Source: Candidatus Latescibacterota bacterium
Lineage (GTDB): Bacteria > Latescibacterota > UBA2968 > UBA8231
DNA length: 64,000 nt
Assembly (NCBI GenBank): GCA_965221775.1
Contig: CBDCSU010000006.1
Location: 224,001 to 288,000, forward strand
Direction of reading: 5' to 3'
The notes under the pieces are model-generated. The model saw only the letters and a list, made by a program, of their open reading frames with translations. It did not search any database and was not told the DNA's origin. Below, in pieces: positions 5,458 to 41,324 of the stretch. Position 1 is the stretch's first letter. Each line of letters opens with the position of its first letter. Position numbers and translations under genes: made by a program.

Positions 5458-7602
5458 TCACCCCCAGGCGAACAGGAAGTTGCCGGTGTGGCCGGTGAAG
5501 TAGTCGACGATCAGCCAGAGGCCGATGGTCAGCATCTGGCCGGCGATCATCCCCAGGAACAGCCCCTGAGTGCAGCGGTAGGTGGTGACGCTCCCGAACC
5601 GCAGGACGAGGACCTTGATGCACCAGGCGACGAAGACGCTGGTGATGGTGAAGGTCATCAGGTTCACCGCCGATACCGGGAAGGCGACCGGGTGGAGTGG
5701 CCACCAGATCAGGCGGTGGCGGGCCCAGTAGAGCAGGGACATGATGCCGCCGCCGCCGAGGAGGAAGCCCATGCCCGGCCAGTAGACGCCGGCGGGCTCC
5801 ATGTTGCGCGCGGCGCTGTCGTAGGCCACCGCCGGCCCGGCCTTGAAGAACCAGCCATCGAGGTTGACGCCGCCGTAGCGGTAGGCGACGTGGAAGATCA
5901 TCCAGAACGAGCCCAGGGTCCCGATCAGCAGGGCCAGGACGAGGGCCAGGAAGACCAGCCGCCGGCTGCGGGCGTCCATGTCCTCGATCAGCTTGAGGGA
6001 ATTGGTGCAGGTGGCCATGGCGAAGGCGCGGACCTCGCTGGCCCAGATGTAGGCCATGGCCATGTTGAAGACGCCCGTGGGGCCCACGAGAGACGAGCCG
6101 AGGCCCATGACGACGAAGTCCGGAGCGTTGACGGGGGCCCGAAGCGTCGCCAGCCCGGCCTCGGCGATGATCCGGGTGATGCCGATGAAGATCACCATGG
6201 CCAGGACGACGAAGAACGAGGAGACCCAGAGCGGCGTGCCCATGATCCACAGCCACAGGATCATGACCGCGGTCCCGCCGAGAGCGCCGATGACAGCCCC
6301 GCGGTAGGGGAGGATCTCGTCGCGGTCGTCGACGCGGGGCGCCCGGCCCAGGGCCTTGAGCCAGACCTCCTTCAGGTGCTCGCGCCCCGTCCACAGCACC
6401 ATGGCGACGAGCACCAGCAGGGCCCCCAGCCCCTGGTAGCCGACAAGGGGTGCGTCGTACACCCCGTGGAAGTGCACCTGCTCCGACTTGATCCCGGCGG
6501 TGGCCAACAGGCTCTTCTGCACCTTGCCGAAGAGGTAGAAGACCCAGACGCTGCCCGATATCCGCGTGTCGATGAAGTAGGTGAAGCCCGCCAGGGCGAA
6601 GTTGAACTTGCCCCCCAGGTACGGTATCGGCAGGTCCAGGGAGACCAGGGGGATGGAGGGGTAGTAGCTCCACAGGGCCCTCATGCTGCCGGCGGCGATG
6701 GGGATGGACATCCCCACCAGCACCGACCAGCGCTTGAAGAAGCCGTTCACCAGGCCTTTCTCGTCCTCGCCGCGGACCATGGCCAGACCGACCTGGGCGA
6801 TGGGATAGCTCAGGCGCTCCCGGTCCATCCACTGGCGCCGCAGGATCACGGCGATGGAGATCATGCAGACGTACAGGGCCAGCAGGAAGACCGCCCACCA
6901 CATGAGCGGCTCGACCCAGGCGCCGTAGGGGATGCTCTGGCCGGGCCGGGAGATCCCCTCGTAGAACAGGGCGTTCCCGGCGCCGTCGTCCACAAGGATG
7001 CCGCGCTCGGGGAAGTGGGGGAAGAGCTTCTCCCGCCACATGTTCTCGGGCGAGGCGTAGTAGAAGACGGCGGTGAGAGAGGGCAGGATGAGCTCGGACA
7101 GACCCATGGTGCACACGGCCGAGACCATGGCCAGCATGGCATAGACCATGATCAGCTCGGCCCGGTTGAGGGCCAGGCTGCGGCCGGACCACGCCAGGGG
7201 CACGTTGCCGAGGGCGCATGTCACGGCGAAGGTGGAGAAGATCAGCCCCGGCGAATGGACATCGACATCGCTCAGGGGCCAGTAGACGTGGAGCCACGCC
7301 CCCGCAAGGGCGATGGCAAGGGCGAGGGCCGCTCTCTTGCCGCGCGCCGCCAGCTTGAAGGCGAGGTTGAGGAACCCGATGAGCACGACGAAGACGAAGA
7401 TCGCCCCCGGGGTGCTGATGTCGGCGGCCACGTAGGCGCCCTTGATGACCATGTTGCTGTAGGGAGCGCTGACGGCCAGGAAGAAGCTCAGGAAGCTCCC
7501 CACGAAGAACCCCCGCCACGTCAGGCGGTGCCGGGACTCCAGCAGGGGCTCCGAGCGCGACTTCAGGTACTGGCGGTAGCTCGGCGCGATTTCCCTGTTC
7601 AC
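5458..7602 (-). CDS. Polytopic membrane protein, DUF6785/DUF6784-like (OPT-related), copy A
   Basis: 714 aa, many hydrophobic segments; YYASPEN.W, LRRQWMDRERLSYPIAQ, WWPLHPV motifs. Close paralog at 19541-21673. Confidence 0.75.
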   Translation of the reverse strand: MNREIAPSYRQYLKSRSEPLLESRHRLTWRGFFVGSFLSFFLAVSAPYSNMVIKGAYVAADISTPGAIFVFVVLIGFLNLAFKLAARGKRAALALAIALAGAWLHVYWPLSDVDVHSPGLIFSTFAVTCALGNVPLAWSGRSLALNRAELIMVYAMLAMVSAVCTMGLSELILPSLTAVFYYASPENMWREKLFPHFPERGILVDDGAGNALFYEGISRPGQSIPYGAWVEPLMWWAVFLLALYVCMISIAVILRRQWMDRERLSYPIAQVGLAMVRGEDEKGLVNGFFKRWSVLVGMSIPIAAGSMRALWSYYPSIPLVSLDLPIPYLGGKFNFALAGFTYFIDTRISGSVWVFYLFGKVQKSLLATAGIKSEQVHFHGVYDAPLVGYQGLGALLVLVAMVLWTGREHLKEVWLKALGRAPRVDDRDEILPYRGAVIGALGGTAVMILWLWIMGTPLWVSSFFVVLAMVIFIGITRIIAEAGLATLRAPVNAPDFVVMGLGSSLVGPTGVFNMAMAYIWASEVRAFAMATCTNSLKLIEDMDARSRRLVFLALVLALLIGTLGSFWMIFHVAYRYGGVNLDGWFFKAGPAVAYDSAARNMEPAGVYWPGMGFLLGGGGIMSLLYWARHRLIWWPLHPVAFPVSAVNLMTFTITSVFVAWCIKVLVLRFGSVTTYRCTQGLFLGMIAGQMLTIGLWLIVDYFTGHTGNFLFAWG
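6824..6954. repeat. 131-bp perfect direct repeat shared by the two DUF6785-like paralogs (second copy 20907-21037)
   Basis: Base-by-base comparison from TCCATCCACTGGCG to GGCCGGGAGAT is identical in both genes. Confidence 0.85.
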
Positions 7603-7612
7603 GGGAGGCGCG

Positions 7613-40339: not shown

Positions 40340-40391
40340 TTCGTGCCATGGAACCTGATCGCCGGCAGCGAGACCTGCCCGCCGCCTGCTG

Positions 40392-41324
40392 CTACTCGGT
40401 GAAGGCAGCCTTGACGCGGCCCCAGCTCCTGGCTTCGACGGCGGTGCCGAACTCGACATCCTCCACCGGAGCCAGGAGGAAGTCGGTGGCTACCGACGAG
40501 GTCTGCCAGATGGTTGCCTGGCCGTTCAGGAGCCAATCCTCCTTCGAGTTCTCGTCGAGGGCGTCGTAGTCGGAGATCTGCCAGTTCATGCCGATGATCT
40601 GGTTTTCCACCATGTCGTGCACCACGCTGGCGTCCGGATCATCCCACTGCAGGTTGTCCCACACCGTGAACATCCACTCCGCCTGGCCGTTGACGTCGGG
40701 GGCGTTGGGCTCGACGGCATCCGACGTGTACCCGCTTGTCGCCCACGGCAGGTTTCCGGTCCAGGTAGCCTGGCTCTGCCAGTACCAGGCCCACGCCGTC
40801 TTCTCATTGTTCACGTTCTCCGCCGACGGATCCAGATCCGGGATGCGGAAGTGGATGTTCTGGGCCCAGCGCGAGCCGTCCTCCGGCACTTCCGCCGGGT
40901 CGAACCAGGAGTCCTCGCCGCCGTGGTCCCCGTCGACCTGTATCTCGAAGGTGTCGGGCAGGTTCTGCTCGTCGCCGAACAGGCCCGCCACCGGCGGCAG
41001 ATTGGCGAAGTCCCGCTTGCGGAAGTCGTCGAAGTACTCGTGGTGGATGTAGAGACGGTCGGTGCTGGCGCTGTAACCGACGATGACCTTGCTGTTCATG
41101 TCGGACAGGTCAGTCCACTGCGATCCGTCCGGGGCCGTGTATAGCTCCGGTCCGATCCAGTAGTCCGAGGGAACCACGGCCCACTCGGACAGATCCCCGT
41201 CCAGGGTCGGCTCCGCGCCCGCCGGGAACTGGAAGGCGAGCAGAACCTGGCCCTCCGGCACGTGAGCCCCGGCCGAGACGGCGAGGCCCGCGGTCAGGCA
41301 GAGGGCGAGTGAGATCTTCTTCAT
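40392..41324 (-). CDS. Secreted acidic protein, CBM9/DOMON-like fold, with C-terminal TAVEARSWGRVKAAF motif
   Basis: MKKISLALCLTAGLAVSAGA signal peptide after GGAGG RBS; PTLDGDLSEW start and IIGMNWQISDYD end typical of CBM9-like domains. Confidence 0.7.
   Translation of the reverse strand: MKKISLALCLTAGLAVSAGAHVPEGQVLLAFQFPAGAEPTLDGDLSEWAVVPSDYWIGPELYTAPDGSQWTDLSDMNSKVIVGYSASTDRLYIHHEYFDDFRKRDFANLPPVAGLFGDEQNLPDTFEIQVDGDHGGEDSWFDPAEVPEDGSRWAQNIHFRIPDLDPSAENVNNEKTAWAWYWQSQATWTGNLPWATSGYTSDAVEPNAPDVNGQAEWMFTVWDNLQWDDPDASVVHDMVENQIIGMNWQISDYDALDENSKEDWLLNGQATIWQTSSVATDFLLAPVEDVEFGTAVEARSWGRVKAAFTE

Follow-up and report, generated by a model that had tools for sequence, protein, structure and literature searches.

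Paired giant barrels and T9SS-type cargo genes form a recurrent cassette in Latescibacterota, possibly a PUL-like surface unit

A region of 36 kb in the genome of a Candidatus Latescibacterota bacterium appears to be a mosaic of independent modules, the core of which (positions 26136-41324) may be a unit for capture and uptake at the cell surface that resembles a polysaccharide utilization locus (PUL) and is served by a type IX secretion system (T9SS). We consider this reading evenly balanced. The window on which it is based is a stretch of 64,000 nucleotides (assembly GCA_965221775.1, contig CBDCSU010000006.1, positions 224,001 to 288,000), which is part of contig 6 of a genome of 5.36 Mb on six contigs. 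A preliminary description of this DNA had combined all genes between positions 5458 and 41324 of the window into one envelope-spanning machine. Relatives of the encoded proteins nearly all come from records titled Latescibacterota, and some are labelled Gemmatimonadota. The genes of the core cassette are given below in the order of the minus strand.

40392-41324, minus strand: R310, a secreted protein of 310 amino acids, possibly CBM9-like, with a C-terminal TAVxxxSWGxVK tag (signal peptide and tail read in the translation)
38306-40255, minus strand: Q, a secreted protein with a putative T9SS-type C-terminal domain (CTD) containing an FTPNGDGIND motif (CHU_C, FlgD_ig and TIGR04131 matches)
35769-38294, minus strand: P, a secreted discoidin-domain (F5/8 type C) protein that ends in a putative T9SS-type CTD (Pfam matches)
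33577-35754, minus strand: O, a secreted all-beta multi-domain protein with a putative T9SS-type CTD, encoded immediately upstream of the two barrel genes in all cases (AlphaFold2 model and Foldseek, FlgD_ig, CHU_C)
30763-33561, minus strand: N (MN1), a predicted giant outer-membrane beta-barrel with a signal peptide (AlphaFold2 model and Foldseek)
27860-30763, minus strand: M (MN2), a barrel paralog of N and always the second of the pair (phmmer against N, from which its fold is inferred)
26136-27860, minus strand: PpiC, a PrsA-like parvulin foldase with a lipoprotein-type signal, LTGC (Rotamase_2, PrsA match)

The G+C content of about 70% gives rise to many long spurious open reading frames in the window, and third-position G+C, together with a codon model built from the genome, served to sort out the real genes. 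All genes of the minus-strand run that had been noted beforehand were found in place, in the order R310, Q, P, O, N, M, PpiC, K1463 (an FtsX fusion), DUF6785 copy B and creatininase. The tight junctions within this run, N/M at 30763, M/PpiC at 27860 and PpiC/K1463 at 26136, proved to be 1-nt TGATG overlaps in all three cases. Similarly, the preliminary description correctly presented the three CTD proteins as paralogs of one another and the two proteins of about 950 amino acids as another paralogous pair, and it rightly stated that no TonB-dependent receptor or SusD is present. The surface part, which includes a parvulin foldase of its own, proved to be a real and conserved unit.

The most distinctive proteins of the cassette are the paralogs N and M (phmmer E 1e-179; M is 40% identical to N). 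Neither matches a Pfam or NCBIfam family at E <= 0.01, and the profile of the N/M family has no sequence match in the PDB. The relatives of N are all called hypothetical (936 at E <= 1e-5 among 8000 scored), and a search of 1.84 billion representatives with the N/M profile gave 958 matches at E <= 1e-3, with 338 at E <= 1e-30. The AlphaFold2 model of N, made from 42 sequences (pLDDT 69.4, pTM 0.68), contains some 28 long antiparallel strands of 7-21 residues each, and its top Foldseek matches are all outer-membrane barrels, i.e. SlpA, MtrB, LptD, TonB-dependent receptors, porins and the FimD usher. On the strength of this moderate-confidence model and the signal peptide we regard N as an outer-membrane beta-barrel. 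Assignment to a known barrel family was not obtained. N and M show no match to PF11751 or TIGR03519, the PorP/SprF models, where PF11751 was nil genome-wide and also nil in 14 control genomes. Likewise, no plug or barrel Pfam match to TonB-dependent receptors or SusC was found at E <= 0.01, the likeness being one of fold at low TM-score only, and usher-type domains were not detected in N with Pfam and NCBIfam. A role in haem binding or electron transfer, an idea derived from the MtrB fold match, was dropped, as nothing points to it.

The two barrel genes have a fixed order. Wherever a locus has two full barrel genes and no more (77 loci), the N-like gene comes first and the M-like gene second, which points to an old, obligatory pair. 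A complex prediction that combined residues 30-932 of N and residues 630-725 of O, its CTD, returned a score of 0.00, which speaks neither for nor against binding. More divergent N/M-like loci are found at C6:1833-23110, C5:358541-378602 and C3:7529-12353, where 2-4 barrel genes, with at least three arranged in tandem, follow a Q-like CTD protein. One of these loci in addition encodes a protein whose Por_Secre_tail/FlgD_ig tail is clearer, and another that is transglutaminase-like.

The three genes that precede the barrel pair encode O, P and Q, which are paralogous beyond their C-terminal tails as well and have hydrophobic, signal-peptide-like N-termini once their starts are corrected (read from the translations). 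O matches FlgD_ig at 39.7 bits (cut-off 27), and both FlgD_ig and CHU_C are found in all 33 O orthologs. For Q the matches are CHU_C (29.4 bits, cut-off 27), FlgD_ig (27.7 bits) and TIGR04131 (E 8.6e-4; 19.4 bits, under the cut-off of 35). P is recognized by F5_F8_type_C (40.1 bits) and F5_F8_type_C_2 (41.2 bits) and has weak CTD matches; its C-terminal end resembles that of PorU (E 1.2e-4). The tails of the O orthologs match the PorU C-end weakly in 28 of 33 cases, and O, P and Q are also weakly similar to the C-end of PorZ. For O and P, a sequence search of solved structures gave nothing beyond FlgD-like tails. In the AlphaFold2 model of O (pLDDT 72.6), beta-sandwich and Ig-like domains follow one another in a chain that ends with the CTD; the best Foldseek match of the model is PorU (6za2, E 6e-7), followed by Ig-like and beta-sandwich, macroglobulin-type, pilin and RbmA folds. 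Taken together, the CTD of O, P and Q appears to be of the T9SS type, with a leaning towards type B.

A typical element of type B CTDs is the motif xSPNGDGxND. In the source genome, xSPNGDG is found within the last 120 residues of 20 proteins, and 19 of these 20 are encoded no more than six genes away from an N/M gene, compared with 3.6% as the background. NPFNP-type tails occur near N/M genes in only 5 of 39 cases in the same genome. The claim that no T9SS core is present was right for the region; elsewhere, the genome does contain such genes. More specifically, SprA was recovered as pieces in one frame of 2192 amino acids (612 bits summed, passing the cut-off), there are two copies of PorU (580 and 542 bits, cut-off 420) and one PorU gene is adjoined by a PorV-like gene (147.9 bits, below the cut-off of 250). 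About 48 further matches to the PorU C-end mark CTD proteins throughout the genome. Independence of the system from the T9SS is not supported: its CTD proteins look like T9SS cargo, and translocon genes are encoded elsewhere. The second PorU copy, of 542 bits (C4:1164516-1169647), adjoins a DUF6785 gene on the opposite strand.

The last gene of the core encodes what is, judged by its sequence, a PrsA/SurA-like parvulin with a lipoprotein-type signal (the lipobox LTGC was read from the translation). PpiC scores 42.6 bits with Rotamase_2 (cut-off 27) and 41.1 bits with Rotamase (cut-off 21.7); among solved structures it matches PrsA (6vj4, E 3.7e-9), and a second region resembles HP_0175. The first gene, that of R310, has no Pfam or NCBIfam match, and neither the protein nor its profile gave a usable match among solved structures. 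Feature likeness in the Atlas connects R310 to clusters in which 13-100% of the members have CBM9_1, which is a lead only; CBM9_1 is absent by Pfam from 33 R310 orthologs at E <= 0.1.

The C-terminal tag of R310 is kept in 33 orthologs, with W301 and G302 invariant. Among the 4170 gene calls of the genome there are 38 occurrences of the motif WG.[VILM]K, and 36 of these lie within the last 30 residues, a segment that holds 7.9% of all residues. In its extended form the tag reads [TS]AVxxx[ST]WGx[VIL]K and is followed by 3-10 residues, with no transmembrane helix after it. The 36 carriers (R310 and 35 other genes) nearly all have a hydrophobic, signal-peptide-like N-terminus, as judged by eye, and form at least 16 groups that are unrelated by BLAST. 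No Pfam or NCBIfam model matches the TAVxxxSWGxVK-type tag, which looks like an unnamed sorting or anchoring signal. The spacer between R310 and Q (40256-40391, 136 nt) contains a perfect G+C-rich inverted repeat (GGAAGGGGGGATGT ... ACATCCCCCCTTCC), which could be a terminator or attenuator that gives an excess of R310 over the products of the downstream genes.

The cassette is repeated within the genome and conserved beyond it. The source genome has 8 full sister cassettes, that of the window included, and 3 divergent loci with 2-4 barrels. It encodes 20 paralogs of N/M, about 28 proteins of the O/P/Q type, 7 of PpiC and 10-14 of the R310 type, next to 14 FG-GAP/ASPIC proteins, 21 DUF6785 proteins and 5 copies each of K1463 and B900, a polytopic membrane protein of the window. 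For a comparison with other genomes we used 80 loci picked by their likeness to N, many of which come from the same genomes. The core cassette (O, N and M in this order, together with PpiC, P, Q and R310) recurs, with varying members, at all 80. O is found at 78 of these loci, Q at 71, PpiC at 66, R310 at 60 and P at 56, followed by DUF6785 at 32 (within 10 kb), FG-GAP at 23 and K1463 at 3 (within 10 kb). Random windows of the same size contain a DUF6785 gene in 7.2% of cases. In addition, assembled contigs from an RNA library labelled as sponge metagenome, which are 92-96% alike and derive from a relative, include sequence of K1463, M, N and P and run across three gene junctions (PpiC/M, N/O and P/Q); being from one library of a related strain, with DNA carry-over possible and with no information on strand, ends or level, they indicate presence in that library only, and uncovered parts carry no meaning.

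The remainder of the 36 kb, and the genes directly upstream of it, are of a different nature:

21745-26136, minus strand: K1463, with a signal peptide, an M28/PA-like domain, about 10 transmembrane segments and an FtsX domain (Pfam and PDB matches)
19541-21673, minus strand: DUF6785/DUF6784 copy B, a polytopic inner-membrane protein and presumed importer (frame corrected)
18712-19434, minus strand: creatininase-family amidohydrolase, downstream of DUF6785 copy B (PF02633 at 120.9 bits)
15463-18655, plus strand: pair of a TPR protein and an FG-GAP/UnbV_ASPIC protein, which recurs near sister cassettes
13023-15280, minus strand: DUF4920-like lipoprotein, MacB_PCD/FtsX permease and ABC (ATP-binding cassette) ATPase, an ordinary MacB-type ABC set
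10343-13054, minus strand: TPR, FG-GAP and UnbV_ASPIC protein, CRTAC1-like (FG-GAP_3 145 bits, UnbV_ASPIC 58.7 bits)
7613-10315, minus strand: B900, a polytopic membrane protein of 900 amino acids, in other genomes the usual neighbour of K1463
5458-7602, minus strand: DUF6785/DUF6784 copy A (PF20581 359.7 bits, PF20580 79.8 bits)
41533-48229, minus strand: upstream extension with a TPR protein, an unknown protein of 628 amino acids and a third FG-GAP/ASPIC protein, with one plus-strand gene at 43464-44345

K1463 matches FtsX at 45.6 bits (cut-off 25.5) and, in the PDB, YtrF, MacB and LolC. Its M28 match is below the cut-off (17.5 versus 21.3 bits, covering 65 of 193 model positions); the PDB matches for this domain are aminopeptidase 2ek8 (E 3.7e-4) and Nicalin (E 0.06). 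The protein shares the C-terminal FtsX domain and large extracytoplasmic domains between transmembrane segments with the type VII permeases MacB, LolCDE and FtsEX. It differs from these by its about 10 transmembrane segments in tandem, by its N-terminal M28/PA-like domain and by its constant neighbour, which is B900 and not an ATPase. No ABC ATPase was marked beside the other four K1463 copies of the genome by phmmer labelling, and the ATPase in the window pairs with its own MacB-like permease. B900 adjoins K1463 at 4 of the 5 loci of the source genome, the exception being the window, where the pair is split by about 11 kb, and the two are direct neighbours in many other genomes (e.g. G055, G043, G058 and G028), with 2-5 copies per genome. 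K1463 and B900 form a conserved pair of their own, and K1463 is no conserved part of the surface cassette.

B900 has no Pfam or NCBIfam match. The order of the second block, from the DUF4920-like gene through the MacB_PCD/FtsX permease, the ABC ATPase, the TPR/FG-GAP/UnbV_ASPIC gene and B900 to DUF6785/DUF6784 copy A, was as first described, although the DUF4920-like gene stays below its cut-off (23.5 versus 25 bits) and the position of its start is uncertain. The accompanying label 'OPT-like' did not survive the HMMER searches: PF03169 matched neither B900 nor any of 17 DUF6785 proteins, even at E <= 1. The only hint to OPT for B900 comes from the Atlas, where its cluster was automatically named 'Peptide transporter family protein' (score 0.90), and the profile link between B900 and DUF6785 is weak (hhalign probability 56%, E 1e-4). 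The profile of DUF6785 has no relative in the PDB. An open reading frame at 19458-21602 (714 amino acids) was discarded as the gene for copy B, since it is a shadow frame, caused by the 70% G+C, with an Arg/Pro-rich nonsense translation; the true gene is the one listed above. Copies A and B are 83% identical and belong to a family that is hugely expanded, with first-look candidates of up to 56 per genome in the sample of the phylum described below. For other DUF6785 copies, catabolic enzymes or a solute-binding protein were the operon neighbours in 6 of 6 cases scanned.

In order to compare the distribution of the families we used 61 genomes, sampled evenly across the phylum, in which three families are labelled f2, f3 and f9. 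N/M barrels are present in 37 of the 61 genomes, i.e. in none of 16 in f2, none of 3 in f3 and all 13 in f9. O is present in 21 genomes, all of which have N/M barrels as well as SprA; it thus occurs in 21 of the 37 genomes with N/M and in none of the 24 without. SprA itself is found in 56 of the 61. K1463 shows a different pattern, occurring in 48 genomes, among them all of f2 and f3 and none of the 13 in f9, and the pattern is the same for B900 and DUF6785 (47 genomes each). Consequently, K1463, B900 and DUF6785 are present in 19 of 19 genomes of f2 and f3, in which N/M were not found. These differing patterns mean that the surface cassette and the inner-membrane set are separate evolutionary units.

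A comparison with described systems reveals partial similarity to several. In Bacteroidota, cargo with a type B CTD binds, or depends on, genetically linked PorP/SprF-like barrel proteins, according to PMC9143113 and PMC12618676, the latter of which calls the recognition and anchoring of such cargo still little explored. The present cassette resembles these systems in the combination of a signal peptide and an xSPNGDGxND-containing putative CTD that matches CHU_C and, weakly, TIGR04131, and in the proximity of cargo genes to outer-membrane barrel genes, N and M holding the same genomic position relative to the cargo. Unlike PorP/SprF, however, N and M are about three times longer, have some 28 strands, come as a fixed pair and lack a family match; moreover, the cassette adds three cargo proteins, a parvulin foldase and a small tagged protein, and its host belongs to the Latescibacterota, a phylum in which searches for GldL and GldM, nil in the controls too, gave no match. 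With the SusC/SusD PULs of Bacteroidota it shares the many diverged copies, the combination of one or more barrels with non-catalytic, binding-type surface proteins and the frequent vicinity of inner-membrane transporters and catabolic genes. The differences are that no TonB-dependent receptor plug, SusD or lipoprotein partners were found in the cassette, that its surface proteins are T9SS-tailed, that the copy in the window has no recognised carbohydrate-active enzyme (CAZyme) and that the N/M barrels are larger than SusC, a barrel of 22 strands. Finally, the best structural matches of N, LptD of LptD/LptE, MtrB of MtrB/MtrA/MtrC and SlpA of Deinococcus (26-30 strands), likewise have room for a partner or plug, whereas no sequence relation of N to them was found, TM-scores are only 0.2-0.3, and no LptE, haem or SLH features were seen.

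In the mechanism that we propose, O, P and Q would be exported via their CTD through the SprA/PorV/PorU machinery encoded elsewhere, and would at the cell surface be held by, or work with, the pair of N and M. The parvulin lipoprotein may assist the periplasmic folding of the very large barrels or of their cargo, and R310, which has a C-terminal tag of its own, would be a small partner that is secreted as well. The non-enzymatic beta-sandwich proteins, one of which has a discoidin domain, would then catch polymer, and the plug-less, TonB-independent barrels would pass the polymer or its fragments. The DUF6785 proteins would serve as greatly expanded inner-membrane importers, often encoded beside such cassettes, and the many diverged copies of the cassette per genome would provide many specificities. 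The data show the gene content, the barrel fold (at moderate model confidence), the conservation of the cassette and its phyletic decoupling from the inner-membrane genes, and they indicate the type of the CTD; we infer the docking of O, P and Q on N and M, the uptake through the barrels and the import by DUF6785. The PUL-like role in capture and uptake is our best guess, based on barrels that are very large and come in pairs, on the number of diverged copies, on folds of the binding type, on the enrichment of DUF6785 genes in the vicinity and on the catabolic or solute-binding neighbours of other DUF6785 copies. A more specific version, which we put forward tentatively and as falling short of an even chance, is that Latescibacterota have exchanged the SusC/SusD logic for a novel outer-membrane unit: a hetero-pair of barrels of some 28 strands, from an unnamed protein family, would dock type-B-like T9SS cargo in the place of PorP/SprF and gate a TonB-independent uptake of polymers, with a foldase in each cassette, and with a second, unnamed C-terminal tag (TAVxxxSWGxIK) that would bring small binding proteins to the surface as well.

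Several observations weigh against the capture-and-uptake reading. The Foldseek matches of the N model have E-values down to 2e-8 but TM-scores of just 0.2-0.3, at moderate model confidence, and the most conserved stretches of N (residues 20-97 and the Asp/Asn-rich 530-624) are without a confident model. The tails of the O orthologs match TIGR04131 in 27 and TIGR04183 in 17 of 33 cases, which is weak and ambiguous (best E 9e-6 and 9e-5). GldL and GldM were not found in the genome, where the searches were also nil in all control genomes and do not show absence. The cassette in the window contains no recognised CAZyme and Foldseek of the O model revealed no enzyme or hydrolase fold, so that the catch-and-import role rests on context. 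DUF6785 was not found in the 13 f9 genomes, which have distant N/M barrels, and is abundant in the 19 genomes without barrels; hence it is not an obligate partner. Furthermore, the 80 loci are not independent, the one-base overlap of PpiC and K1463 allows a local functional link in this lineage, and a pure role in anchoring or adhesion fits much of the same evidence.

This last possibility, in which N and M would be oversized analogues of PorP/SprF that anchor cargo, and O, P, Q and R310 variable adhesins or host-interaction proteins of a sponge symbiont without any uptake, is a serious if rather unlikely alternative. There is a precedent in the type B CTD proteins on linked PorP/SprF-like proteins, described in PMC9143113 and PMC12618676, and the near confinement of the CTD class to N/M neighbourhoods (19 of 20), the chain of Ig-like and beta-sandwich domains in O, which is like that of adhesins and pilins, and the presence of leucine-rich repeat (LRR) and PD40 proteins beside one sister cassette would all agree with display. 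Many diverged copies would also suit surface variation. What argues for uptake instead is that paired barrels of 28 strands far exceed the needs of an anchor, that genes for the presumed DUF6785 importers are commoner in the vicinity than in random windows (32 of 80 loci versus 7.2%), and that P has a discoidin domain and R310 is possibly CBM9-like.

We consider it improbable that N and M are dedicated export pores or assembly platforms for O, P and Q, with PpiC as chaperone in the style of chaperone-usher systems and no need of a T9SS. FimD and SlpA are among the fold matches of N, a foldase is part of the cassette at 66 of the 80 loci and GldL and GldM were not found (in searches nil in the controls too), but O, P and Q seem to bear the kind of CTD that belongs to the T9SS, every sampled genome with O (21 of 21) has SprA as well, some 48 further CTD matches call for a general T9SS in any case, and N has no detected usher-type domains. 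Even less probable, in our view highly so, is the single machine of the preliminary description, assembled from the surface proteins, barrels, chaperone, FtsX fusion and OPT/DUF6785 proteins encoded at 5458-41324. The genes are co-oriented, PpiC and K1463 share the TGATG overlap, two of the compared loci (L015 and L016) have the order PpiC, K1463, DUF6785, and the closest relative retains the whole layout at 91-96% identity. The full 36-kb layout is, however, found only in the closest relatives; relatives with an N ortholog of 84-86% identity have one DUF6785 gene directly after PpiC, and neither K1463 nor the second block. In addition, K1463 lies within 10 kb at only 3 of the 80 N/M loci, the other four K1463-B900 pairs of the genome stand away from any barrel gene, and the phyletic patterns of N/M and of K1463, B900 and DUF6785 differ, each occurring in families without the other. 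The co-occurrence analysis that had been suggested as a check thus came out differently for the two halves, the surface members co-occurring and staying adjacent and the inner-membrane genes being decoupled from them.

The cassette has further neighbours that are separate from it, namely the ABC set of the MacB type, the creatininase and the pairs of TPR and FG-GAP genes. The plus-strand TPR (15463-16959) and FG-GAP/ASPIC (16883-18655) genes stand between the two minus-strand blocks, and TPR and FG-GAP genes are found side by side in sister loci of the source genome as well. The creatininase gene is separated from DUF6785 copy B by 107 nt. Upstream of 41324 the run extends with the TPR protein (41533-43218), the 628-aa protein and the third FG-GAP/ASPIC protein (46268-48229), after which a run for small-molecule catabolism, including an aldehyde dehydrogenase, a PhyH dioxygenase and a short-chain dehydrogenase/reductase, was seen in the part of the window scanned at 48228-55830. 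Sister loci also contain PcRGLX-like, GDSL and DUF4838 proteins. PMT_2 (GT-C glycosyltransferase-like) and TPR membrane proteins are encoded in or beside sister cassettes (C5:181793-183577, C6:1351733-1353718 and C6:1365859-1367793), and given these PMT_2 proteins the surface proteins of the cassette may be glycosylated. Directly downstream of another sister cassette, three tandem paralogs combine LRR and PD40 beta-propeller domains (C5:306595-311082).

Taken singly, the parts of the cassette are of known kinds, since cargo of the T9SS, barrel partners in the outer membrane and parvulin foldases have all been described; what is new is the family of barrels, their occurrence in pairs and the fixed composition of the cassette. 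No description of the cassette, the barrel family or DUF6785 was found in the literature, with supplements, which possibly contain gene lists, outside the scope of the search, and the impression that no characterised system has such a composition agrees with this result. A term search of a paper on sponge Latescibacterota (PMC12993501) gave no occurrence of 'TonB', 'outer membrane' or 'secretion system'.

Members of the Latescibacterota often occur in sediments and sponges but are uncultured, and how they feed is deduced from genomes only. If the cassettes are uptake units, they would explain how a phylum without classical Sus-type loci handles polymers. The scale is considerable, with 8 full copies in one genome and 958 representative clusters of the barrel family in public data, and families that are now called hypothetical (the N/M barrels, O/P/Q, R310, K1463 and B900) obtain working names. 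The T9SS is known mostly from Bacteroidota; here, a distinct class of cargo tails is tied to a new family of giant barrels, which bears on the recognition and anchoring of type B cargo.

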